A stretch of 31,913 nt of DNA from a virus. The position numbers were made by a program, and so were the translations under genes. Below the pieces are notes generated by a model that did not search any database, was not told where the DNA came from, and saw only the letters and a program-made list of their open reading frames with translations. The first letter of the stretch is position 1. Each line of letters starts with the position of its first letter. Positions 605-31,913 of the stretch are shown here, one piece after another. Location: IMG/VR virus record IMGVR_UViG_3300045988_119030, positions 149,411 through 181,323 of that record, one strand, 5' to 3'.

Positions 605-2392
605 TCAGTAATTTGCAATCATTGTTTTAAAATCTTTAGAATTAAAAATTTCTCTCATTGGTTCAAGAATACATTTTTCAACCAAATATTTTCTATTTAA
701 GATATTATTAAAATCTTCATTAGTATATTCATAATTATATTCTTTTAAAATATTAATTATTTCATCTTTAGAGTATTTTCTACTTTTTACATAAGAATAT
801 AAATTAAGATACTTTTTAAATTTTTCATAATAAGGACTTACAGTAATATCTACTGCGAATTGATTATCTTCAAGAAGATAGTCTGCGGAATCTTCAAATA
901 AATTTTTTACGAAAATTTCATTAGGAATTGTTTGAATATCTTTATTATTATAAGAAACCAATAAATCTCCTTGAGATAAAAGACCTAAAAATCTATCTGT
1001 TAATATATCGTCCTCAATTAAATCTACAAAATTTAAACAGTCTTTGATTATATTATAAACTCCATCGCCGTTATTTAAATAATTTTGAATATGTTTACAT
1101 TTATTTTTAGTAAGAATTGCACTTTCTTTAAGGGTTTTTAAAGTTTTACATTTATCTAAAAAAGAATACCAAAAGCCGTCAAGATTATTTAAATAAATAT
1201 CAATAGCTACAACCTTATCACTTAAAGATACATCAGCATAATAAATTTCAGCTTCAATAGATTCCGCGATTTTTTTATTCCATTCAAAAATTTCTTCATT
1301 CGAATAATTTTTATCTTCATAAGATAAAAATACATTTTTATTAATAGTATTTACATATTTCTTATGAAAAAAAATATTCTCAGGAAATGTATTTAAATTA
1401 GTAATACAAGATCCACCCATGATAATAATATCGTTATTATCTAATGTTTCATAAGGAAGAATAACAGAAAACTTTCTATCATCATAAGAAAAGCAATTTT
1501 GATACATTTCAGTTAAAATACGTTCAACCGCAATTTCAAATACAGGAAAAGCACCAAAATTAACTGAGATAGTTCCATTTTTATAATTAATAAGAATTCC
1601 CATTACTACTGGAACATTAAACGTTCTTGACATATCAATAATATAATATTTATTGCCATGGGATTCAATAGCATTAATAATCTTAATTAACTTTTCATCA
1701 GTAATACTATTAATATCAACAAAATAATAATCCTTATTAGGATTAGTATAAAAATGACTAACAACATAATGTTCAAAAATTTCTGAAAGTCCTTGATTTA
1801 ATGCCTCAATTATAGTATTACCAGCAGCCATACCTGAACTTCCCTGATAACGCTGAATGAGACGAGGATCTAAATACTTTACATCTTTTTCATTATTTAA
1901 ATTAATATAAGGAATACCAAAAAATTTATTATTATACATAGAAGTAAGACAATCTTTAATTATATAATTAGTTTCTTCGTCAAAAGAATTAAAAAACTTA
2001 TACATTAAAGAATCTTTTCCACCAAGGGCTTCTTTAAAGTTTACTTCTTTTTCATTTCTAAATAATGAATAATTATAATTTTTTTGGTTTACTTTGATTT
2101 TTTCATTACACAAAAAAGGATTACATAAATAATGTAATCCATTGCAAAATCTTTCATACATTTCAGCATATCCAGAAGCCATAGCGAACTCTTTAGATAC
2201 TCCTTTTCCAAAAGATCTTAAAATAGAATGACCTTTATAGTATAAACGAAGAGCAAGACTCCATGTTGTAGATTGTTCTTGACGTAAAACTTCTTCTATA
2301 CAATAAAAGCCTCGATCCGCAAAGAATTGCTTAATATTATTTACTGTATCTAAAGGATTAGTTTCTTTATAATGCTGTGAATAATTATTCAT
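605..2392 (-). CDS. ycaO: YcaO-domain protein (ATP-dependent amide-backbone activating enzyme family), 595 aa, stand-alone E. coli YcaO-like size
   Basis: Hallmark YcaO motifs seen in translation: SFGKGVSKEFAMASGYAEMYERF (GKG-x-S/T...A.ASxxAExxER) and YQGSSGMAAGNTIIEALNQGLSEIFEHY (SxGxAAG...EAxxxGLxExxE). TGA stop. No in-frame TAG. Confidence 0.75.
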   Translation of the reverse strand: MNNYSQHYKETNPLDTVNNIKQFFADRGFYCIEEVLRQEQSTTWSLALRLYYKGHSILRSFGKGVSKEFAMASGYAEMYERFCNGLHYLCNPFLCNEKIKVNQKNYNYSLFRNEKEVNFKEALGGKDSLMYKFFNSFDEETNYIIKDCLTSMYNNKFFGIPYINLNNEKDVKYLDPRLIQRYQGSSGMAAGNTIIEALNQGLSEIFEHYVVSHFYTNPNKDYYFVDINSITDEKLIKIINAIESHGNKYYIIDMSRTFNVPVVMGILINYKNGTISVNFGAFPVFEIAVERILTEMYQNCFSYDDRKFSVILPYETLDNNDIIIMGGSCITNLNTFPENIFFHKKYVNTINKNVFLSYEDKNYSNEEIFEWNKKIAESIEAEIYYADVSLSDKVVAIDIYLNNLDGFWYSFLDKCKTLKTLKESAILTKNKCKHIQNYLNNGDGVYNIIKDCLNFVDLIEDDILTDRFLGLLSQGDLLVSYNNKDIQTIPNEIFVKNLFEDSADYLLEDNQFAVDITVSPYYEKFKKYLNLYSYVKSRKYSKDEIINILKEYNYEYTNEDFNNILNRKYLVEKCILEPMREIFNSKDFKTMIANY

Positions 2393-2440
2393 ATGATATT
2401 ATGCCTTTCTTTTTTCTATCATATAAATATATTACTATAT

Positions 2441-2492
2441 TTTTTTAATAAAGTCAAAAACCTACCATTTTATTTGGTAGTTTTTGACTTTA
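2441..2492 (-). promoter_or_regulatory. 16-bp near-perfect inverted repeat (AAAGTCAAAAACCTACC / GGTAGTTTTTGACTTT) directly after the stop of gene 2493..2996. It embeds a TTGACT -35-like hexamer 17 nt from TAATAT. Candidate terminator/promoter junction for ycaO
   Basis: Stem-loop read directly. Lacks a clean U-tract on either strand, so its terminator role is uncertain. Confidence 0.3.
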
Positions 2493-2996
2493 TTAAATTG
2501 AATAAAAGCAATTAGGACATAAATACTAATTATCATCTATTTTAAATAATGGAATATTACTTACTTGTAAATTACATTTAAAGCATTGTTTATTTTTATA
2601 AATTTTTGGTATAAAAATTTCTATATTTGGCTCAAATAAATTTAAAAGATTATTAGATATTTTTTGAAAGTAAATATCTTTTTCTTTATTAGTATCATTA
2701 TAATTATATTGTAAAATATATTTACATATTACTTTACAATGATTTAAATTAGTTAATTTTAATTCTTCTACTGGAATAATAATATCAGATATATTATCTA
2801 AATTTATTTTAGATTTAATTGTATATTGTATTTGAAGAATTATAGTTTTATCTTTTTTAATAATTCCTAAATTAAAGCAAACAAAAAGTATCCAATAGTC
2901 ATAAATACTATTACTGTCAAAATCAAAAGATAAAGCTCTTATTTTATCCCAAAAGATTTGTTCTGGAATTTTAAATCCGCCATTACTAAATTTCAT
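2493..2996 (-). CDS. Hypothetical protein (~167 aa) with C-terminal 4-Cys zinc ribbon (CFKC...CPNC). Contains an in-frame TAG at 2526-2528
   Basis: Track ORF 2526..2996 ends in TAG. The frame continues QYLCPNCFYSI to a TAA at 2493-2495. RBS GGAGAG before ATG 2996. Confidence 0.5.
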
Positions 2997-3154
2997 TTAA
3001 CTCTCCATTAAAACAATACTCATAATAATTATTTGTATCTTTTTCAATTTGAATACTCCGAGGATAATCTAACTCCCAAGATGTTCTTTTATTATAAAAC
3101 TATAAAAAATTTTTTACTATATCTTGTATAAATTCTTTATATTCATCGTAAGTA

Positions 3155-5212
3155 TCAATCATATAAATCATACTCTTCTTTCTCAAGATAATTTAAAAAT
3201 TGATCATGGGCAAATTGATAATATATATATCCATTAAAATAATTTAATATTGGATATATTTCTTTTTTTAAATTATCAAATGATTTAATATATTCTCCAT
3301 CTAAACAATGAAAATTAATAGTATTGTTTTTTATATCACCTATAATTTTTTTACTTAAAGGGCATAAACAATCATTATTTATTTGTTTTAAAGGATAAAT
3401 TAAATTTATTTTATATAAAATATAATAACTTGTTTTAATAAAATTTTCTATAAAATAATTATTATGTTTTGTATAAATTAAATTATCATATTCATAAAAA
3501 TATTTTATTTCATATAAAATTCTAATAATTATTGATTGTAATATTTTATTTTTTTTATCTAAATTTAAATTATAGATATAAAGAAACTGTAAAAAGAAAA
3601 TAACTATTTTTACTAAATAATCTATAGCCTCAGACAATCCCGTATGAGATATGTTACCTGGATTAGTATTTAAATCAATTATATAATTTCCAATAGTCTA
3701 ATCAATTAGTTGTCCTTCTCCATATAAATTACATAAATCAAAAAATAAACTATCTTCGCATAAACAAAAATTACTATATTTTATATTATATTTCTATAAA
3801 AAACTTCGTTTTAAAAGTAATCCAAGTTTATTATCAGGAATAATAAACTATATAAAATCATTTTTTTCGTTATTTTTTATAAAATTATAAAGAATTTCTA
3901 ATTCATTATTTATATTAAATAAATCATCTGAATCCCAAAATAAAACATATTCATTAAAAGAATTTTCTAATCCTACGTTTCGTGCGACTCCAGGTCCTTT
4001 ACGAGTAAGATTTTTAAAAAAGAAACAAGGAAAATCCGCGTTATCAAATATTTTAATAACTTTTCTCTCACAAGCTGAATTATCACTTATTAAATATATA
4101 CAACAATCTTTAATAATTGTTTGCGCTCTTAATGAATTATATAAATCAATTATCTAATTATCATTAAGGTTATAATAAGGAATAATTATATCTATTTTGC
4201 CATCAATAAATCTATTTATACATTTTTGTAAATAGTAATTATTATATCGAAAGTCAATTGGAGTTTTACCATTTAAAAATTCCTAATAATTATTTAAAAA
4301 ATCTTCTTTATTATTTATAAGTTTTAAATAAAAGTCGTAGTCTTCAAAATAAGCATTTTCCATTGATACAGTAAATTCTGATTTAATGTTATAACATTTA
4401 TGCCATAGCCAAGAAGCGGTTGGTAAAGTAGCATCACAATATTTACAAATTTTCTTAGGTGAAAATATAAAATTATGTAAATCATCTAAGCTATTTATAT
4501 CTTCTAACTACAAATAATCTTCTTCCTCTTCTGGAATATTCAAATTATATTTTTTACAATAAATATCTAAGAATGCGGAAAAAGGACAGATATATATCTT
4601 ATAATTTTTTAATGTAAAACAAGGTATTTCATGTGGACAATATTGATAATAAGCCTTTGCTGGATCAGTATCTCCATTTTCATTTACAAGCTACTAACGC
4701 ATAAATAATCGCTCTTGATGATTAAAAGCAATACCATATTCTTGGCATTCTTCAACATCTTCATAATTTGTATAATTACTATAAGCAGTTATGTCGAACA
4801 TTATATCCATATCAAGGTATTCTTTTTTATGTTTAATAATATTTTTCATATTTAATCCATTAGATAAAACTTTTAATTGAGTTTTTTCTTTTGGAAATAT
4901 TTCACGAGCTATTTTACATAATTCAAATAGTTGTGGGTGAAGAGTTGGCTCTCCACCCACAATCATAAATACTTTTATATTAGGAATTTTTTTATTAGCC
5001 ATAATAACCTAATTGCGGAAATCATTTATATCAATAAACCAAGGCGTGGCTAAAGGTGAAAAATGATTACATCCCGCGCAATTAAGATTACAATGATCTA
5101 CTACTTGTATTTCTAAGCTTACACCATCATAAACAGATTTCCAAAGACTATGTGTATATGGAGGAATCCCACGATAATCTTTATCTTTCTTTATCTGTAT
5201 ATCGTTCATCAA
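3155..5212 (-). CDS. Radical SAM enzyme (N-terminal) fused to or translationally coupled with a GT-A/family-2 glycosyltransferase domain plus a C-terminal domain of unknown function. 12 in-frame TAG codons, including a TAG-TAG pair at 4691-4696
   Basis: One frame from ATG 5212 to TGA 3155-3157 with zero TAA/TGA. It links track ORFs 5009..5212, 4694..5002 and 3155..3637. Motifs: CNLNCAGC (CX3CX2C) and GGEPTLHP (rSAM). IDIIIPYYN...SLRAQT, ARNVGLENSFNEYVLFWDSDD (GT2 Rossmann start, ARN...DxDD). Cys-rich stretch after the rSAM core. Confidence 0.6.
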
Positions 5213-5762
5213 ATTCTCCTAATATATGTGTATTATAATCAACTAATTCTCTTATTTGATTATTGCGTTCATGTAAAAAACATTGAGTACAAATTTCATT
5301 TAAATTGTTTAAAGGTTCATGGAAAAAATTGCAATAATGTTTTTCAAAATCAACATATTTACAATACTTATCGCATATTAAAATATTACTATCTTTATTA
5401 TAAATCACAGGATGATCTTCTCGTAAGCGGAAAGATAGCTGAATTTTAAACATTAAAGTTCCTTGATAAGAATATAAAAAAGTTTTATAAAATATATCTT
5501 GGACTTTACTTTCAAAAGTAAATTTCTATTTATCTGTAGTAATAAGCTCAATGCATTCTATTTCATTCTAATCTATAGCTTTAACTTGCTAATAAACCTA
5601 ATTTAGAAAAGAATAATCAATATCATTCTAATTTTTAATTATTTTTGCAAAAACTATTTCTTTTGGAAAATTTAATTGAAATATAATATCATCACATTGA
5701 CGCTCATTAAATTTAACAGATTTTAAAATTTCTTTATCTGAATTAATAAAATTAATAACCAT
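5181..5762 (-). CDS. Hypothetical small Cys-rich protein (CDKYCKY...HYCNFF...CTQCF). Possible N-terminal extension to ATG 5762 containing 6 in-frame TAGs. The core 5181..5453 is a clean ORF
   Basis: Frame from ATG 5762 runs into track ORF 5181..5453 with only TAG interruptions. The high TAG density makes the extension uncertain. Overlaps the rSAM start by 32 nt. Confidence 0.3.
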
Positions 5763-6090
5763 TTCGTTTATCAGGAATTCCTTTTAATCGATCTCCTAAG
5801 AAATATCTATATAATTCATAAGAATCAGCAATATTATCGCATAAACAATTATTATTATTTTCATTGTTATTATTATCGTTATTATTATTATTATTATTAG
5901 ATTTTTCTGCATGATCTGTAATAATTATTTTAATGAAATTATTGATAATAGTATTAATTTCTTCATTTTCACCATTATTTTCAATCCAATTTAAATAAAT
6001 AACATATAAAAGATCTCTATAATCTTCTACATTGCTATAATCAAAAGTTTCAATTAAATGATTAATTTGATTTTTCATTTCTTCAATCAT
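5752..6090 (-). CDS. Small Asn-rich protein (112 aa) with a poly-N tract and a C-terminal CLC motif. Candidate precursor peptide or accessory protein of the rSAM-SPASM enzyme
   Basis: ORF overlaps the stop of the upstream rSAM-SPASM gene (ATGATTGA coupling). Low-complexity KSNNNNNNNDNNNNENNNNCLCDN. Confidence 0.5.
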   Translation of the reverse strand: MIEEMKNQINHLIETFDYSNVEDYRDLLYVIYLNWIENNGENEEINTIINNFIKIIITDHAEKSNNNNNNNDNNNNENNNNCLCDNIADSYELYRYFLGDRLKGIPDKRNGY

Positions 6091-7489
6091 TGTAATACCC
6101 CAAATTATGGCAAAGATTTAACCAATTTTCTTTATATTTTTCATCTGGAAAATAATTTTTTTCTAAAGCAATTTTAGTTAATCCTAATTCACAATAACTT
6201 TTAACTAAAAAAGATATTCTTGTTTTATGTAATTCACAAACACTTTTAGGCGGTAAAAATAAATCTCCAGTAGCTTCGAGTGCCGCACCAAGGCAAAGTT
6301 TTAAACAAAACGGATCATAAGGACAAGTAACACATCCAACATTTAAATGAGTATTGTTTGTCTTAATTACTGTATAAAGACTTGGATTAATTGCTGTAAT
6401 TCCAATAATTTTATCATTTTCAACTTCAAATTTACCGCCAATAAATTGCTGATAAGAAGTTCTGTGGCAAGGAACTAATTCCATAGTAGCAACATATAAA
6501 CAAGTTTGATGAGAAATTGCACAAGTGTAATTTCCATCTTTCCAAGTGACAGTTGGTTGTAATGGATCATAATTGTGTAATCCAATTAAAGATCCTTCTT
6601 CCCCATCTCCTAAAAAGATATGTCGAGCTAACTTATCTAATGAACTATCATTCATTTGGAATCTAATTTCAAGCATGTGAGTTAAGAATTCAAGATAGTG
6701 ATTTAATTTTTCTTCAGTCCATTCATCATTACGAACTTCTAAGAACATGGGCTGAAATTCATCGCGAGGCCCTTTACATAATTTATATTTCTCAAATTGT
6801 TCAAGCCACCAATCATAATTTTTAATAGCGCTTTCAATATTATTTGGAGAAATCATTGGATGAATACCGCAACAGTTCTTAGAAAGAAATTGCATAATCT
6901 TATCATAATATTCAAAATCTTTATTTTCTTCTCTTACACTATCATAAGGACCATCTACAGAACAAGATAAATTTAATTCCATTTCAAGGTCAAGAAATTT
7001 TTGAAGATATTCTTCCACTTTAGCTGCTTTTTTATCATCAGCAACAAAACTAAAGTTATTGGGGAAAGCAATACGAGGATGATGATTCTTAAAAAGATTA
7101 GGATGTTCTTCAAAGAGAGCTCCATAATATTTTAAAAGTAAATCAAAAATACTAAAGCCTAAATTATCATAAAATAAATCTCCAGCAAAGAGTTCTATTT
7201 CAAGGAATAAGACTTTTCTTTCGTTAAAAATATAATCTAATATAATGTTCATATTTTTAAGAATTTTTTCATTATTTGCTCTTGTTTCAAGTGGGTATAA
7301 ATCTTTTCCGTAACGAGCAATATAACAATATTCACACTTTTGATTACATTCTGGACGAATAATAAACTCAAAAGAGCTTTCATTTATCCAATATCCTTCT
7401 TCTTTATCCCCTTGATTAAAGCAATGGTTATCAAGAAATTTTTCAAAATATTTATTATTATCTAAAATACAACCTTCACTAATATTCAT
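6083..7489 (-). CDS. Radical SAM / SPASM-domain enzyme (peptide/protein-modifying maturase class), 468 aa
   Basis: CNQKCEYC (CX3CX2C) near the N-terminus. C-terminal CAISHQTC...C and GCVTCPYDPFCLKLC (CX2CX5CX3C SPASM signature). Start overlaps the TAA of the upstream gene by 1 nt. Confidence 0.8.
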   Translation of the reverse strand: MNISEGCILDNNKYFEKFLDNHCFNQGDKEEGYWINESSFEFIIRPECNQKCEYCYIARYGKDLYPLETRANNEKILKNMNIILDYIFNERKVLFLEIELFAGDLFYDNLGFSIFDLLLKYYGALFEEHPNLFKNHHPRIAFPNNFSFVADDKKAAKVEEYLQKFLDLEMELNLSCSVDGPYDSVREENKDFEYYDKIMQFLSKNCCGIHPMISPNNIESAIKNYDWWLEQFEKYKLCKGPRDEFQPMFLEVRNDEWTEEKLNHYLEFLTHMLEIRFQMNDSSLDKLARHIFLGDGEEGSLIGLHNYDPLQPTVTWKDGNYTCAISHQTCLYVATMELVPCHRTSYQQFIGGKFEVENDKIIGITAINPSLYTVIKTNNTHLNVGCVTCPYDPFCLKLCLGAALEATGDLFLPPKSVCELHKTRISFLVKSYCELGLTKIALEKNYFPDEKYKENWLNLCHNLGYYND

Positions 7490-8991
7490 TAATTGTATAC
7501 TCCTTGTTCTGTATATCTATCGTCATCCCAACATTCTTTAGGTAATACCCAATTATTTTCTCTATCAACATAATTATATAAAGCAGAAGAAATTCTTAAA
7601 GTTCCAATGCTTCTTAATAATTCACTACCAGTAGAAACCAAATTATTATAAGTACAAGCAAGATTTTTTGTTGTAATAAAAGCTAAGTGAAGCAATTTAT
7701 TATAATCATATTTATACACTGAATTTAATTGTCCGCACTCATTTAGCATTTGATATTCATTTAAAATAGTTTGAAACATGAATGGAAAAGAAGTGGTTTT
7801 AAATAAATTATATTTATAAAACACCTTATCAATTTCTTCATCTGATGCTGTTAAAAGATTAACACAAGAATGTCCTCTTGTCATTAAGTCTTTACGGGAA
7901 AGAGTGTCAATAGTGCCATCATCTTTAATGTTGTTTGGGTTTATATCAAACATATAATTTTGACAAGATACCATAGTACCGTCCCATAAAAGCTTTAATT
8001 CACTCCAATTAGAGCCACAAAAATTATTCATAGATAATGATCTAATAACTTCTTCATTTTTATCTTTAATGCATTGTAAAGCTTCTTCAATTGTTAAAGG
8101 GCATCCTTTTTGAGTCACATATTCTCCCAAATCGCATAAACTATCTTCATAAACACTTCTATATCCAACGATTAAACTAACTGGCATTCGTGGATCATGA
8201 AAATCAGACACATCAATATTAATTAATCTTTGTAAAAAAGATTCATACTCAATACGCTCATCCACTGATCCGTCTCTTGGATGTTCTGGACAAATAGAAA
8301 CTGAAGGATTAAGCGTAATAGCTTGATTAATAACTTTTTCATTTAATTCATATCCAAAAGTATCTAATTCTTTATAATAATCATGAACTTTTTCAAGAGT
8401 ATCTAATTGATTAATGAGCATTCCAGACAATACACCATGTAATTGTATTGAAATATTTGTATGATTAAATTTAATTTTATTTAATCCCTCTATAACTGTT
8501 GAAATAGTTTGAAAAATACGTTCATTATTTGCATTTCTAATATTATTAGTAGAATAAGCTCCATCATATGAAAATTGAATTGATAAATTCACATCATCTT
8601 GAGTTGTTAATTCATCTACTCTTTTAGCAAAAGCAATTATACGTTCTGGAAAATCCATTCCATTAGTTGAAAAATCAATATTTCTAATATTAGGAAAAAA
8701 TTTAAACCAATCATCTAAATGCTCTGTAATAAGATGAAGTGTTAGTGTTGGTTCTTGACCCCAAAATCCAAAATTATCAATTATATATCTATCAAGGTCT
8801 AATCTTTTAAAAATTTTTTTTACATTTTCAAGATAAGAACCATCAGTTAAAGCTTTAATTGTATCTTGTTGTAATTTAGCAGAACAACCATTTAAACTAT
8901 TTTCTATCATGCAATACTAACAATGTAAATTACACCCACATGAAGATACGAGTGTTACTGCTCTAACATCTATATCTGTATTTTTTTTCAT
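7489..8991 (-). CDS. Radical SAM enzyme (~500 aa) whose CX3CX2C motif is split by an in-frame TAG at 8917-8919 (SSCGCNLHC-TAG-YCM). True start is ATG 8991 with RBS AAAAAGGAG
   Basis: Track ORF starts at 8910. Upstream same-frame reading gives MKKNTDIDVRAVTLVSSCGCNLHC*YCMIENS. GFWGQEPTL aligns with the GGEP motif. Confidence 0.7.
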
Positions 8992-9017
8992 AAATTCTCC
9001 TTTTTCTCTTAAAAAAT

Positions 9018-9770
9018 TTAAGATCTTGATCTTCCTGCTCCACTTCTATTCGCGCTGTTAGAAGTATAAGCCCCTCTATAGGAGCAAGGTCTATAACTGC
9101 CTCTATGAGTATCATTATTAGAGCCTCTATGGCTTGTATAATAAGTATAATTACTTGAATAATTAGAACTATTATAAGCATTATTAGAACTTCTATTAGA
9201 ACCGTTATAAGCATTATTAGAACCTCGATGAGTTCCATCATAAGCATAGTACCCATTTCTATGTGTACCATTATAACTAGCGTCATAAGCATTATTAGAA
9301 GCTCTATAACTACCATTATAGCCACCATCATAAGCATAATTAGAGGCTCTATAACTACCATCATAACTAGCGTCATAAGCATTATTAGAAGCTCTATAAC
9401 TACCATTATAACTACCATCATAAGCATTATTAGAAGCTCTATAACTACCATTATAACTACCATCATAAGCGCAAACCGCGTTTACTTCTTCAAGTTTTGT
9501 CCTAATTTGTGATAATGGAATATATCTAGTTAACTCATTTACTCTTGGGGCTGTAAAGGTGTCAAAAGTTGCTTTTGTACCAACGTAAGATACATTTCTT
9601 AAATTTTCAATTTCGTTCTTTATTGTGATAACATCTCGCGCCCCAACTCTTTGTTTAGTCTTATCAGGAATAGCAGTTCTACTTTGAGAAAATCTTGTTT
9701 GCGCTGTATTTAAGTTATCATATAAAGCACGAACATCAGCCCATGAAATTCGACTTCCTGTTCCTGCCAT
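9018..9770 (-). CDS. Tyr/Asn/Ser/Gly-rich tandem-repeat protein (250 aa): a ~95-aa N-terminal domain followed by ~15-aa repeats AYDGSYNGSYRASNN. Second gene of the operon, just upstream of the three rSAM genes
   Basis: Clean ORF, RBS AAAAAGGAG, TAA stop. Overlapping track ORFs 8963..9466 and 9228..9512 are repeat artefacts. Confidence 0.7.
   Translation of the reverse strand: MAGTGSRISWADVRALYDNLNTAQTRFSQSRTAIPDKTKQRVGARDVITIKNEIENLRNVSYVGTKATFDTFTAPRVNELTRYIPLSQIRTKLEEVNAVCAYDGSYNGSYRASNNAYDGSYNGSYRASNNAYDASYDGSYRASNYAYDGGYNGSYRASNNAYDASYNGTHRNGYYAYDGTHRGSNNAYNGSNRSSNNAYNSSNYSSNYTYYTSHRGSNNDTHRGSYRPCSYRGAYTSNSANRSGAGRSRS
9111..9470. repeat. Tandem direct repeats (45-bp unit, four perfect or near-perfect copies at 9291-9470, degenerate 30/45-bp copies upstream) encoding the repeat tail of the protein above
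   Basis: Exact 45-bp duplication ATTATTAGAAGCTCTATAACTACCATTATAACTACCATCATAAGC at 9381-9425 and 9426-9470. Confidence 0.8.
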
Positions 9771-24955: not shown

Positions 24956-25885
24956 TTAACAAATTCTAAAAATTGTTGTATCCAATTTCAAATCATTAAT
25001 TGATAATTTATCTAAATGAAAATATGGGATTCTAATTAACGGGATGTTATTTTCTTTACACCATTGATTTTTAAAAGCATCATGTTCTTTTGTTTTTTCA
25101 AACTTTTCTAATGTATTCCAACCAGTTCCAGATTGATAATGCTATATTCCATCAAATTCAATTAAATAAGAATTATCAATATAAAAATCAAATTTAGCTT
25201 TATGGTTAGTATCCTAAAATTTACAATTTTCAAAAGTTTTTTCACAAATATACTAAATATTATGTTCTTTTAATAAAGAGATAATTTTTTCCTAACCTGC
25301 TGATTGTAAACAACCACAAGATTTACTTTGTCCTTTTCTTAAAGTAGTTCCTGATACAATTTTTTGATTGCCACAAGAGCATTGGCATAACCACATAGCA
25401 GTATTATGCTAATTAGATCCACTACGTTTTAACACTGTCCATCGACCAAAAGTTTGTCCTGTTAAATCAATTGTTGTAAGTTCACCGATCTTTTTATGAA
25501 TATAACAACCACATGAAATAACGGCGCCACTTACTAAACCATCTTTACGAATACTTTTAATAGTTCCACAATCACACTAACATTTCCAATAAGTATGCCC
25601 TTTTCCTTCTGTTCTATCATATCCTAAAACTGTTAGCATACCGAATTTTTTACCTGTTAAATCTTCTAACTGTTTTAAACGTTTCTAACATCCACACGAA
25701 GTTGTATGATTTGAAGTTAAATGAGAAGCAGAGACTACTGTCTTATTACCACATTCACATTGACATAACCAATACGATCCTTTTCTTGAATATTCAACTC
25801 GATATAAAACTGTTAATTTTCCAAAATGCTAATTAGTCAAATCTTTTGCTTGTCCTACTGGAATCTATTTATAAATTTTTTCCAT
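24956..25885 (-). CDS. DNA endonuclease-like protein: three N-terminal zinc-finger repeats (FG.LTVL...W.CQC.CG...SCGC) plus a C-terminal DUF559/Vsr-like PD-(D/E)xK domain (DFYID...IEFDGIQH). Nine in-frame TAG codons
   Basis: Region has no track ORF. Frame from ATG 25885 (RBS AAAAGGAG) to TAA 24956-24958 contains only TAG interruptions. TAG occupies positions that are CAA (Gln) in the sister repeats. Confidence 0.6.
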
Positions 25886-28797: not shown

Positions 28798-29136
28798 TTA
28801 AGAGATTGTAGAGATTAGAAAAATCTCGGGATCATCAAGGCTTTCGATGGGGATTTTGAGAAACTTTGCGTAAGCTTCCTTCATTGTGTTATTAAGGCGA
28901 TAATACTCCTGCGGAGCGATGAAGATATTGTCGATGCGGACGGCCTCGCCTGCGGAAGACTCACCGAGAAGATAGCCGAAGATAGGATTTTCGTCGTTAT
29001 CATAGTCGCTTGCGCGATGCCAATAACCTTCCTCGGTAAGCTGTTCGATAGCCTCAGCCATATTATCATAGTTTTCAAGAAGGTTCTTGGGGACTTTATA
29101 ACCACACACGAGCTTAGAACCAAAATCAACAGACAT
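28798..29136 (-). CDS. Hypothetical protein (112 aa). First gene transcribed leftward from the divergent control region
   Basis: Clean ORF. Confidence 0.6.
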   Translation of the reverse strand: MSVDFGSKLVCGYKVPKNLLENYDNMAEAIEQLTEEGYWHRASDYDNDENPIFGYLLGESSAGEAVRIDNIFIAPQEYYRLNNTMKEAYAKFLKIPIESLDDPEIFLISTIS

Positions 29137-29178
29137 TATTTATCACCTTTCAATAGTTTTTCTTTATTTTATATTTAT

Positions 29179-29207
29179 ATTATATATTAAAATTTAATAA
29201 AAATCAA
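29179..29207 (-). promoter_or_regulatory. Conserved promoter TTGATT-N17-TATAAT driving the leftward gene block
   Basis: aatcaa at 29202-29207 and attata at 29179-29184. Confidence 0.5.
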
Positions 29208-29261
29208 TAAAGCGGTTTTGTCGCCTCAGGGTAGCATAAAGACTGGATTTAATGATCGGCT

Positions 29262-29640
29262 TATCAAAAATGGTCATTTTAAATGAAAATGGTCAAAATT
29301 TTCTGATAAATGGTTAAAATTTTCTATATTTTTGTCCGTTTTTTTCTATATTTCTGGTCAAAAATTTCTGATGAAGAGATCGGATAGCAAGTATAGAGGC
29401 GGATTAGGGCAAGGGAAACCGCATAGGTAATTTTTCATAGTTCCCTATTTTTATATAGATGTCTAAATTTTAAACAAAATAGGTAAAAATTTTAGGTAAT
29501 TTTTCATAGTTCCCTATTTTTATTTAGAATTTGTAGGTAATTTTTAATAGTTAGCGATCGGTTTGGTTAGAATTTTTAAGAAATTTTTCATAGTTGCCTT
29601 TAAAAATATACTTTGGGTAAAAATTGTTAAAATTACTATT
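29262..29640. repeat. Iteron-like direct repeats of two families: TGGTYAAAAWTTTCTGAT (3 copies) and TAGGTAATTTTTCATAGTTCCC (3-4 copies). Putative replication origin / divergent regulatory region
   Basis: Repeats read directly at about 29289, 29309, 29355 and 29424, 29493, 29534, 29581. Confidence 0.55.
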
Positions 29641-29846
29641 TTAGATTTGAAGTATATATGAAGGAGGTGAAAGTATTGTCAATAGAATAGAAAAGATTTC
29701 CTGCTAATGTAGATATGAATATATTAACTTTTTTAAATAATAAGAAGATAAATGGTGAATTATATGCTTATTTGTAGAGTTTATCTGATTATAATGTGAT
29801 TAATAAATAGCATAATATTTATAAAACTTATGTATTAAAAAAATGG

Positions 29847-30308
29847 TTGCCGATTCAAAGTAAGATGTGTCAAATGCTTGGTATTAAAAGTCCTAAAACA
29901 TTAAAAACGCATTTGAATTATTTAATTGAGCAAGGGTATATTATCGAAGAAGAAGATAGATATATATTACCTGAAATGGAGAGTATATATTTTCTTATTC
30001 CGCTACCTACATTAAGATATATAAATGATAACTGTAAAGAACATATTATAAAGATATATATTTATTTAGGATAGCGTTATAAATATGCGTTAAATAATGG
30101 AAGTTAGTATGAATTTACATTAGAGGAAATTGGAGAGCATAGTGGTATAAAAGTAAAGAATAACAGCAGGGGCTATGAGATTATTAATAATGCTTTAACA
30201 TTTTTATAGAATTCAGAATTAATTGATTATGTTAGCTTTTTTGATGGATAGACGCAGAAAAAGAAATTAACAAAATTTAGTTTTGAATATAAAAATTAGA
30301 ATAGGTAA
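29847..30308 (+). CDS. Putative DNA-binding / replication-initiator-like protein with two HTH-type segments. Five in-frame TAGs (30072, 30105, 30207, 30249, 30297). Start is TTG 29847 or ATG 29865
   Basis: Track ORF 29847..30074 ends in TAG. The frame continues to TAA 30306-30308. Flanked by iterons on both sides. HTH-like segments LGIKSPKTLKTHLNYLIEQGYI and FTLEEIGEHSGIKVKNNSRGYEIINNAL. Confidence 0.45.
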
Positions 30309-30360
30309 TTTTTACTAGTTCCCGATGAGCATTTTAGGTAATTTTTCATAGATGCTTCGA
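30303..30360. repeat. Two more copies of the TAGGTAATTTTT(A/C)ATAG iteron at the 3' end of the Rep-like gene
   Basis: Direct sequence match to the 29424 family. Confidence 0.5.
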
Positions 30361-30423
30361 CTTAAATTAGGTAAAAAATCATAGATTATCTAAGTAATAA
30401 GTAGAGGGTGTTTTCTAAGTAGT

Positions 30424-30473
30424 TTGTATGATACAAACGATCGGCATCCGCCTCACTTTGTATCATACAAACG
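30424..30473. promoter_or_regulatory. Two near-identical palindromes GTTTGTATGATACAAAC and TTTGTATCATACAAACG about 30 bp apart. Candidate operator pair upstream of gene 30506..30709
   Basis: Palindromes read directly. Confidence 0.45.
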
Positions 30474-30505
30474 TTTGATTTTTAAATGAAAAGAAGGGTA
30501 ATAAA

Positions 30506-30709
30506 ATGAAAAGAAATTTATATCAATTTGATTTTAGTATGTATAGTTTAGCAGGAATGCCAGGTAATGATAAAAATTTACAATCAGATTTTGCCAGAGG
30601 GTTGATAGAAATGTATTATAAAGGTAGATATACAGGCAATAATAAATTAGTTAAATAGTATTTTGAAGAATTAACTGATAAATATATGATTGATCATAAT
30701 ATTAAATAA
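30506..30709 (+). CDS. Small protein (67 aa) with an in-frame TAG at 30656-30658
   Basis: ATG after AGAAGGG. TAA stop at 30707-30709. Confidence 0.4.
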
Positions 30710-30722
30710 GGAGTAAAAAGTA

Positions 30723-31046
30723 ATGGCATATAGTTATGAAGATGTAGTAAGAGGTGGAAAGGGTAATATGTCAATAATAAGATTTGTAAGAGGAACGCAA
30801 GAATAGTTTGATAAAATGGATAAAACAGGTATTATACAACCTAATATATATATGAAAGATGATATTCTTTATTTTGTTGTTCCAGATGATACAAAACCAG
30901 TAAAGGTAAAGTATGATGATAGAAAAGTAGAATGGAATGAATCAGGAGTAGGAAGTTTAGTTAAAAATAATGATAGACCTGAATCAATAGAAGAGAATCC
31001 ATTCTTACAAGAGTCAATTAACTCGGATACTACGTATCCTCGTTGA
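30723..31046 (+). CDS. Hypothetical protein (107 aa) with an in-frame TAG at 30804-30806 that joins it to track ORF 30816..31046
   Basis: RBS AAGGAG before ATG 30723. TGA stop. Confidence 0.5.
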
Positions 31047-31214
31047 TAAGGGTATAAATGCCCTCGTTTATAGGGGTATTATTTGATTTATAATAAATAA
31101 TATATTATAATATATATAATAAAAGAAAAAATGAAATGAAAATTTGAATTGAAAGGAGAAAAGACGGGGTAGGGTAAAATGAAATGAAATTCCCGGCCCG
31201 TCCGGCCTGAGGAC

Positions 31215-31601
31215 GTGAAATTTGATACTAAAACCTTAAAAGAGAATAATGGAGAAAAGGTAGGCGTCTTCCGCAATTGGAATGTTATTGCAACTACTAA
31301 GAAAGAGTTCTTTAATAGAGAGGATACGCGAGGCGCATACCTTATTTGGGACGACTGTAATAAGTTGGTTTTTCATGGTAAGGTTCTTGGTCGAATTACT
31401 GAGCAAGGTAGAGTGGAATATATCGAGAATGAATATAGTTATGTGAGGCCCGTGCTTGAAGAGAGACCAACTTCGGGCACAAGTGCCCTCGTTAATGGGG
31501 TTGCTTCTGGATCGGAAGATGTGGATCTTAGCAAGCGCACACTTGCCGATGACATTCTTGATAGTGCATTTAAGACAAAGTTAGAAGAGCTTTTAGCATA
31601 A
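31215..31601 (+). CDS. Hypothetical protein (128 aa), GC-rich (~45%). GTG start with poor RBS spacing, so the start is uncertain
   Basis: Clean ORF with no internal Met. Preceded by an ATG-AAA-TGA mini-ORF in the same frame. Confidence 0.5.
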   Translation: MKFDTKTLKENNGEKVGVFRNWNVIATTKKEFFNREDTRGAYLIWDDCNKLVFHGKVLGRITEQGRVEYIENEYSYVRPVLEERPTSGTSALVNGVASGSEDVDLSKRTLADDILDSAFKTKLEELLA

Positions 31602-31610
31602 GGAGGATAT

Positions 31611-31685
31611 TATGAGTGGTATTATTTGGTTTTTAATTGGTGTAGCTGTTGGATATTGCCTATGGAACGCTGGAAGAGACCGATA
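31611..31685 (+). CDS. Tiny hydrophobic peptide (24 aa, one TM segment)
   Basis: RBS AAGGAGG 7 nt upstream of ATG 31611. Confidence 0.35.
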
Positions 31686-31789
31686 ATAGACCTATATTGG
31701 TTGATTCGCTTCTGGATAACAATTAAATTAATGGGTTCGGAGTCGGAAGACGTGAAGTAATTATATGCTTTGAGAATTGTTGAAAGTGT

Positions 31790-31913
31790 GAAAATGTTAG
31801 TAATTGTTAAAAACTAATATTGTTAAAAATAAAAAATTGCTTTGAAATTGTTAAAATTACTAAAATTGCTGGAAATTACTGAAAATTGTAGAAATTACTG
31901 AAAATTGTAGAAA
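31790..31913. repeat. Tandem direct repeats (ATTGTTAAAA x4 and GAAATTACTGAAAATTGTAGA x2) running off the window end
   Basis: Repeats read directly. May mark a genome terminus, a packaging site or a second origin. Confidence 0.5.

Follow-up and report, generated by a model that had tools for sequence, protein, structure and literature searches.

A conserved repeat module around a tandem winged-helix gene: a candidate replication origin in a large TAG-recoded phage

To our knowledge, no replication origin is known for the large gut phages in which a stop codon is recoded. Whether one might be recognized from its anatomy is a question raised by a locus of about 1.4 kb in the virus record IMGVR_UViG_3300045988_119030, of which 31,913 nt were analysed (hereafter the window; coordinates are window positions). 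Here, arrays of a 22-bp direct repeat lie on both sides of a gene for a 210-aa protein, which is predicted to have two winged-helix domains. The arrangement resembles the anatomy of iteron replicons, the general features of which have been reviewed (PMC4980987), and may mark an origin, or a module for replicon control, of the iteron type in a large TAG-recoded phage (~200 kb in the closest long relatives), served by a new initiator-like family. This is the favoured reading, given a little less than an even chance.

Repeat arrays on both sides of a recoded gene

Six matches to the 22-mer TAGGTAATTTTTCATAGTTCCC with up to three mismatches are present in the window (at 29424, 29493, 29534, 29577, 30302 and 30335), all on the plus strand; shuffled sequences contain none, and no copy occurs outside 29424-30389 in the rest of the 31.9 kb. 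The 17-nt core TAGGTAAWWWWTCATAG adds a copy at 30368 and, with a half-copy at 29480, the total reaches eight including variants. A first-pass annotation, made from the letters alone, had reported two direct-repeat families in this control region, the 22-bp one occurring at least five times both upstream of the gene and at its 3' end, and these counts bear it out. The repeat is bipartite, comprising a conserved half, (T)(A/G)GGTAA, an A/T spacer and, about 10 bp away, a second half that varies by clade (CATAG, GGATAG, TCTAC or ACTACG). Upstream copies in the window are spaced by 41-69 bp, with a 43-bp period scored across 29488-29599 by Tandem Repeats Finder (TRF), and their offsets from the gene start (-252, -196, -183 and -142) are identical in the closest relative (L001) and nearly so in L002.

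The second repeat family, TGGTYAAAAWTTTCT, lies further upstream and has three exact copies (29290, 29311 and 29355). By eye, its units are marked by TGGTC at 29271, 29290, 29311 and 29355 and by a degenerate TTGTC at 29332; TRF gave no score to this 21-22-bp TGGTCA array. L001, L002 and L004 keep the array, and a similar repeat, TGGTTAAAAATAGCTA, is present in L046, a distant member of the family. A hexamer, GATCGG, also recurs at 29254, 29378, 29556 and 30439, so that 1.2 kb of 75% A+T DNA holds four of the seven plus-strand copies in the entire window. Each of the four lies at a junction between repeat arrays or within the loop of the hairpin described below; the first three are kept in L001, and the third in L002 and, as GACCGG, in L004. 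Possibilities for its role are methylation or a second binding site.

The reading frame between the arrays is broken under the standard genetic code and open from 29631 to 30308 when TAG is read as a sense codon. Its most likely start is a TTG at 29676, 6 nt past a ribosome-binding site (GGAGGTG, 29663-29669), with an ATG at 29658 as the alternative; alignments of homologues begin at about residue 6. The gene had earlier been placed at 29847..30308 and credited with five TAGs, a call that is superseded by this longer gene with eight in frame. Two Gln columns of the protein family, at residues 34 and 133, are invariant in 16 relatives read at the DNA level, where they are encoded by TAG seven times, by CAA or CAG nine times and by no other codon; TAG therefore encodes Gln here. 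This usage extends to part of the window's genes, namely those of low G+C content (0.22-0.28): 10 TAGs are found in 3155..5242(-) and nine in 24956..25885(-), and the codon is also used in 5181-5783(-). Adjacent genes of higher G+C content (0.36-0.46), including those beside the plus-strand island that holds the locus, are devoid of TAG codons. In the gene table built with TAG as sense, all open reading frames of the window terminate at TAA or TGA. No suppressor tRNA gene, or tRNA gene of any kind, was found in the window. This recoding pattern matches that of the partially recoded large gut phages (bioRxiv 10.1101/2021.08.26.457843).

Relatives with 43-94% protein identity, on contigs of up to 201 kb, were found at 19 IMG/VR loci and on several metagenome contigs, and the layout was tabulated for 17 loci, window included. 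All 17 carry same-strand repeats, two to eight upstream of the gene and one to four at or just after its stop codon; the downstream copies are usually 22-24 bp apart, and in seven loci the stop codon is part of the first copy, always at the same place in the repeat. A loose form of the repeat pattern has 131 plus-strand matches in 23.9 kb of gene regions versus 112 in 110 kb elsewhere, an enrichment of about five-fold that is confined to the plus strand (25 minus-strand matches in gene regions). Copy number varies among near-identical relatives, with one more copy than the window in L001 and only two upstream copies in L007. When the whole viral collection was scanned, relatives of 185-201 kb included, stretches with multiple copies of the core were encountered only at this gene, one per contig of 58-201 kb. 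Given this restriction, a protein that binds these sites would act only locally. The core's confinement to this locus in the 185-201 kb genomes also led to rejection of the repeats as ordinary dispersed promoters. Iteron arrays characteristically consist of locus-specific direct repeats of about 17-22 bp that share one orientation and recur at about two helical turns, and these arrays conform to that pattern, the usual downstream spacing of 22-24 bp being the classical period of iterons; spacing is wider in the window than in its relatives.

The tandem winged-helix protein family

The first-pass annotation had noticed two helix-turn-helix-like segments in the protein, which correspond to two winged-helix domains in a structure predicted by AlphaFold2 for a homologue with 96% identity (mean predicted local distance difference test score 81). 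This is the tandem winged-helix (WH1-WH2) arrangement of Rep_3 initiators. The family is large, with 382 close homologues on contigs of up to 200 kb and at least 591 clusters at 50% identity (E <= 1e-3), and the homologue lists, including those of a second search with a diverse profile, provided neither a functional name nor a Pfam model for it. For the window protein, the Pfam models HTH_36 (17.3 bits; cut-off 25) and LexA_DNA_bind (16.7 bits) both scored under their cut-offs, and PHROG matches were weak. Among 61 family members, HTH_36 was matched in 55 (best E = 2.8e-6), LexA_DNA_bind in 54 and DUF6945 in 27, while the PHROG matches include phrog_3396 (ScpB; 34 members), phrog_11046 ('transcriptional regulator'; 33) and weak matches of replication type, to a DnaD-like loader (14), an O-like protein (13) and three 'replication initiation protein' families (8-10 each). 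The HTH_36 and PHROG initiator matches are short and span a single helix-turn-helix. Judged by such profiles, the similarity of the family to initiators appears weak but recurrent.

Structure searches with the predicted model indicate a generic extended winged helix. Foldseek returned nothing below E = 1e-3 from the PDB, where the RepA_N-iteron complex 5kbj was matched over one domain, and the named matches among viral protein models (BFVD) include a 'Replication initiator protein' and a 'Replisome organizer' as well as TrmB and helix-turn-helix regulators. By sequence, the nearest solved structures of the first domain are MarR-, DeoR-, GntR-, LexA-, Crp- and TubR-type regulators. Together with phrog_11046, these regulators speak for the main rival explanation, which is that the locus is a local transcription switch, with an autoregulated winged-helix repressor or activator working at the arrays. 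Such a switch is considered possible, though on the unlikely side, and is weighed below against the promoters and sites that it would use.

The weak TubR match (6tey, E = 0.013) brings in a second rival, plasmid-type maintenance, in which the locus would be centromere-like or an incompatibility locus, with a TubR/ParR-like adaptor on the repeats and a motor encoded elsewhere or by the host. Direct-repeat arrays beside the gene for the binding protein are typical of such centromeres, and by analogy the arrays here could serve in the same way; a small plasmid equipped with a Rep of its own moreover carries a homologue. However, the island encodes no ParA, ParM or TubZ-like NTPase, the neighbours of the gene being all of 130 aa or less and without family matches, bacterial genomes and annotated plasmids contain almost no members of the family, and there is no sign of plasmid persistence for these phages. 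This explanation is accordingly rated as very unlikely.

Repeat and protein vary in parallel. In the first domain, the predicted recognition helix (IKSPKT..HL.YL) hardly varies at all, whereas that of the second changes clade by clade, and these changes track the variable half of the repeat, a pattern confounded by shared descent. The single locus with GGAAA in place of GGTAA also has an altered first helix. The covariation fits a protein of which one molecule would read one repeat using both domains: in the origin model, each 22-bp repeat would take up one molecule, the first domain reading the GGTAA half and the second, variable domain the CATAG half, about 10 bp (one helical turn) away.

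The trait shared with distant members is a set of three to four repeats at or within the 3' end of the gene, as seen in pRGI00117, L042 and L046. In L042 (309 aa), three 22-bp copies lie inside the gene end; a Pfam and PHROG scan of this member detected no replication genes. In L046, which has tandem paralogues (935-1528 and 1853-2770), the first gene is followed by four repeats spaced by 23 bp and then by a hairpin, the stem of which measures 21 bp. A homologue (hhalign probability 97.8%) is also encoded on pRGI00117 (HG796263.1, L008), a 7.2-kb plasmid from rat gut, where three repeats at 23 bp come after it; this plasmid holds in addition a canonical Rep_3 gene with three 22-bp iterons. The two pRGI00117 genes are preceded by a similar sequence of ~50 bp (807-856 versus 5804-5853), with repeats at 1186-1251 and 6629-6692, as if the plasmid held two parallel modules. 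As with the paralogues of L046, an extra gene related to the family lies beside it in the closest relative, L001, the island of which contains a 99-aa gene (6064-6363(+)) with a product that by eye resembles a single winged helix and has no Pfam match; the window is without an intact equivalent. Beyond the viral collection, annotated phages were searched at the DNA and the protein level without a match, annotated plasmids yielded only pRGI00117, and among contigs from one bacterial genome per species the sole match was on a contig of 3.8 kb from a metagenome bin assigned to Eubacteriales. These nearly empty searches indicate that the family is not a common prophage or plasmid gene.

Origin module or local switch

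The elements flanking the arrays bear on both explanations (Table 1). On the upstream side, a promoter scan placed a sigma-70-like promoter for the long leftward gene block, with 10 of 12 matching positions, at 29207..29179 on the minus strand, in DNA that reaches 97% A+T at 29160-29199, and this tract is the sole candidate there for a DNA-unwinding stretch. Just upstream of the promoter, the minus strand has a small G+C hairpin and, directly after it, a run of T (29208-29228), which could stop leftward transcripts entering from the island. The inverted half-repeat, built from the conserved half alone, takes the form GGTAAAA-N7-TTTTAC in relatives and is degenerate in the window; it lies 40-76 nt upstream of the start in six of the 17 loci (the window, L011, L012, L014, L015 and L018) and is absent from the more distant clade L020-L028. 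In iteron replicons, an inverted repeat with part of the iteron at the promoter of the initiator gene allows autorepression by dimers, a role that this element may share. On the downstream side, the TAAGTAA of the AT-rich box is one base off the repeat core TAGGTAA, and in nearly all loci the last repeat is followed by (A/T)TATCTAA(G/A)TAAT, with TCTAACTAA in L027 and TCTAAAGA in L028. The box might serve for melting, represent a weak copy of the repeat or form part of a promoter.

Beyond the box lies a hairpin with a DNA free energy of -16.3 kcal/mol (z = -5.5), followed by GTTTGATTTTT. It was not called in the terminator scan because its stem is AT-rich and its loop 19 nt long, and no Rfam match was found in 28900-31913. 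Perfect stems of 10-21 bp are present at 15 of 19 loci, with compensatory stem sequences that are unrelated between loci and tails that are mostly not T-rich. The loop sequence TCGCTTCGCTC is kept, 70-160 nt past the gene stop, in L013, L017, L018, L020-L024 and L027 despite wholly different stems, which suggests that the loop is recognized sequence-specifically, as RNA or single-stranded DNA. A G+C-rich patch (CGGCCGCG, TTGCGCCG) often follows the hairpin in otherwise AT-rich DNA.

Were the locus an origin, occupation of the three repeats that begin at the stop codon would destabilize the adjoining AT-rich TCTAAGTAAT box, and the hairpin beyond it would either act as a signal for priming or for the primosome, or form the 3' terminus of a transcript reading through from the gene. 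The upstream array and, where present, the inverted half-repeat would autoregulate the gene, and the upstream array may pair with the downstream one and so limit initiation.

The same elements can be assigned to a switch. Binding to the upstream array and inverted half-repeat would then control the promoter of the gene itself, perhaps together with the early promoter that directs divergent, leftward transcription (29179-29207), and binding to the downstream array would govern expression of the next small genes from a promoter at the TCTAAGTAAT box. As the mRNA holds eight TAGs, the regulator would act only after a switch to amber suppression, for example in shutting off the TAG-free leftward genes. 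Consistent with this, sites occupy both intergenic regions of the island, the leftward promoter adjoins the TGGTCA array, and TAGs are found in the island genes and in none of the neighbouring leftward genes. By eye, T(A/G)GGTA of the last repeat stands 17 bp upstream of a weak -10-like TAAGTA, as TGGGTA-17-TATTTT does upstream of the gene, and on pRGI00117 replication would be handled by the separate Rep_3 replicon. However, the 8-11 sites in phased arrays far exceed what a simple operator needs, and the trait most conserved across the wider family, rather than a promoter-proximal operator, is an array that overlaps the 3' end of the gene or lies within it, accompanied in most loci by a long hairpin. 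In addition, the downstream genes vary among relatives, sigma-70-like matches are no commoner than in shuffled sequences (23 versus 17 +/- 4), and a regulator without sites elsewhere in these genomes would govern only about 1-2 kb.

The proposal of an iteron origin with a Rep-like gene, made in the first-pass annotation, thus stands as regards the conserved, strand-specific and locus-restricted arrays that flank the gene and their iteron-like anatomy, and finds no support in initiator-family matches, GC skew, DnaA boxes or neighbouring genes. The outcome that the annotation had named as refuting it, a transcription regulator for which the repeats are operators only, is considered possible, though on the unlikely side. 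Several findings weigh against an origin. The window protein has no significant match among curated families, initiator families such as RepA_N and DnaD-like included. Membership of Rep_3 (PF01051 Rep3_N and PF21205 Rep3_C) failed, with no significant sequence match: Pfam gave no Rep3 match for the window protein, Rep3_N appeared under threshold in five of 61 relatives (E >= 0.005; the distant member P0249 reached 21.4 bits against a cut-off of 22.4), and alignment of the family profile with hhalign to a genuine Rep_3 protein (pRGI00117 1335..2099; Rep3_N 1.6e-33) gave a probability of 1.8%. With its separate Rep_3 replicon, pRGI00117 does not need the homologue as a replicon, and as the family is nearly absent from annotated genomes, no annotation or experiment backs any function for it. 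No DnaA box with at most one mismatch occurs in 29137-30505, and Pfam and PHROG scans of the neighbours revealed no helicase, primase or loader genes adjoining the locus. DnaA boxes are not universal in Firmicutes replicons.

Nucleotide skew and recoding add to these objections. GC skew has been reported as unclear for clades of ~200 kb (bioRxiv 10.1101/2021.08.26.457843). Here, it is positive solely over the 2-3 kb island and, in L001, L002 and L004-L007, negative again to the right. Skew, which the first-pass annotation had put forward as a check, was rejected as origin evidence, as it follows gene orientation, and because the switch reverts after the island, genes to the right of it would meet a fork head-on. 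At third codon positions, the small difference in skew between left and right is confounded by third-position G+C contents of 0.29 versus 0.46. Finally, eight in-frame TAGs, the first at codon 5, imply that the protein is made only under active amber suppression, an odd arrangement for a function that infection requires from its outset; in a published model, replication genes are 'variably' recoded (bioRxiv 10.1101/2021.08.26.457843). A bolder form of the origin reading turns this point around: a whole lineage of large amber-recoded gut phages (~200 kb in the longest contigs) would have its origin and initiator at this locus, the initiator belonging to a tandem winged-helix family without sequence relationship to Rep_3, RepA_N or DnaD, and, because its mRNA carries the eight TAGs, initiator synthesis would be gated by the TAG-to-Gln switch, so that the code change would license one round or one mode of genome replication, or plasmid-like maintenance. 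This form is regarded as improbable.

The surroundings of the locus are mostly of opposite polarity. Nearly all genes from 605 to 29136 are on the minus strand, the first leftward gene beginning at 29136, and a gap of 540 bp separates it from the plus-strand segment, which begins near 29676. The rightward gene block of the first-pass annotation proves to be an island of only ~2-3 kb: in relatives, minus-strand genes resume after two to four small genes, the content of which varies. This setting is pertinent to a packaging site, in which a small-terminase-like winged-helix protein would bind repeats beside its own gene. Lambda Nu1 binds the R sites of cosB, and a winged-helix protein beside repeated sites near its own gene invites an analogy with lambda and SPP1. 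Yet there is no large terminase or structural gene nearby, the surroundings being small accessory genes on the opposite strand, no terminase family was matched, and contigs of 196 and 201 kb have the locus in their interior; a packaging site is thus extremely improbable.

Two groups of minus-strand genes in the window deserve mention apart from the locus. The stretch 605-9770 contains a YcaO cyclodehydratase gene (Pfam 7e-26), two weakly supported radical-SAM-like genes (PHROG 2.5e-5; Pfam 18.7 bits, under the cut-off), a TAG-rich gene for a 695-aa protein with a Cys-rich N-terminus, and a 250-aa protein built of repeats such as AYDGSYNGSYRASNN. On sequence grounds, these look like a phage-borne peptide-modification cluster, similar to those for ribosomally synthesized and post-translationally modified peptides (RiPPs). 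The HNH/homing-endonuclease gene at 24956-25885(-) (phrog_374, 2.6e-60) is of low G+C content and, with its nine in-frame TAGs, lies within a TAG-free block; in L001, a second endonuclease with an HNH signature seen by eye in the translation (8352-8966(-)) is immediately right of the island. Both are probably mobile insertions.

Table 1. Features of the locus and its surroundings in the window
Feature	Position	Strand	Description
AT-rich tract with leftward promoter	29155..29207	-	Up to 97% A+T; sigma-70-like TTGATT-17-TATAAT
Second repeat family TGGTYAAAAWTTTCT	29271..29375	+	About 5 units, 19-23 bp spacing
Upstream 22-bp array	29424..29598	+	Full copies 29424, 29493, 29534; degenerate 29577; half-copy 29480
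Inverted half-repeat	29616..29636	+	GGTAAAA-N7-AAATTAC; candidate operator
Tandem winged-helix gene	29676..30308	+	210 aa, 8 in-frame TAG read as Gln; TAA stop within first downstream repeat
Downstream 22-bp array	30302..30389	+	Repeats 30302, 30335, 30368, 33 bp apart; first overlaps stop codon
AT-rich box ATTATCTAAGTAATAAGTAG (TCTAAGTAAT box)	30385..30404	+	Abuts last repeat
Hairpin	30422..30472	+	Perfect 16-bp stem, 19-nt loop
Small genes, rest of island	30506..30709, 30723..31046, 31215..31601	+	67, 107 and 128 aa; no recognisable family
Genes of putative RiPP-like cluster	605-2392, 3155-5242, 6083-7489, 7489-8910, 9018-9770	-	

Comparison with known replicons

With about 1.4 kb, one 210-aa protein and a defined 22-bp site, the locus is a compact, conserved and tractable candidate. 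Were it an origin, it would introduce a new initiator family, of at least 591 clusters at 50% identity and without a Pfam model, offer a tool for vectors in uncultured Firmicutes-type hosts and link replication control to the code switch. Were it only a regulator, it would be a clear case of a recoded, hence late-translated, DNA-binding switch heading a TAG-free early gene block.

Among known systems, some phage initiators bind repeats within or next to their own genes, as do lambda O, SPP1 G38P and the DnaD-like replisome organizers (HTH_36, Phage_rep_org_N), and share with the family a winged helix at the N-terminus as well as gene-associated repeats. The protein described here differs in having neither a C-terminal domain for recruitment of a helicase or loader nor an adjoining loader or helicase gene. 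The RepA_N family, in which iterons are close to or within the gene, is represented by the RepA proteins of the Firmicutes plasmids pSK41 and pTZ2162 (4pta, 4pql, 5kbj). Gene-proximal repeats are common to both, and GGAGGTG and the Eubacteriales bin hint at a Firmicutes-like host; however, there is no sequence-level match to RepA_N (Pfam, NCBIfam, PDB), and the second domain is predicted to be a winged helix in place of the host-interaction C-terminal domain of RepA_N.

In pAMbeta1, ColE2 and the Staphylococcus aureus pathogenicity islands (SaPIs), the origin lies directly 3' of rep. Compared with pAMbeta1/Inc18 RepE and its primosome site, ColE2 Rep and SaPI Rep-ori, the sites here likewise begin at the gene end, with an abutting AT-rich stretch and a hairpin ~100 bp further, and as no terminator separates gene and sites, transcription can run into them. 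Priming by the transcript, in turn, may be suggested at most by analogy of layout. The initiators of these systems are unrelated, being larger or equipped with enzymatic domains, and none is a 210-aa tandem winged-helix protein.

The closest likeness in anatomy is to Rep_3-type replicons (F RepE, P1 RepA, pPS10 RepA, R6K pi). In P1 (incC-repA-incA) and F (ori2-repE-incC), iterons flank the initiator gene on both sides. The phage locus differs from this type in its lack of detectable sequence homology and of DnaA boxes, in the overlap of the first downstream repeat with the stop codon, in the conserved hairpin after the array and in being carried by a phage of ~200 kb instead of by a plasmid. 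It has in common with Rep_3 systems a small protein with two predicted winged helices, direct repeats of ~22 bp in one orientation and in variable copy number and arrays on both sides of the gene; in part of the family, an inverted part-iteron upstream of it may be a further likeness.

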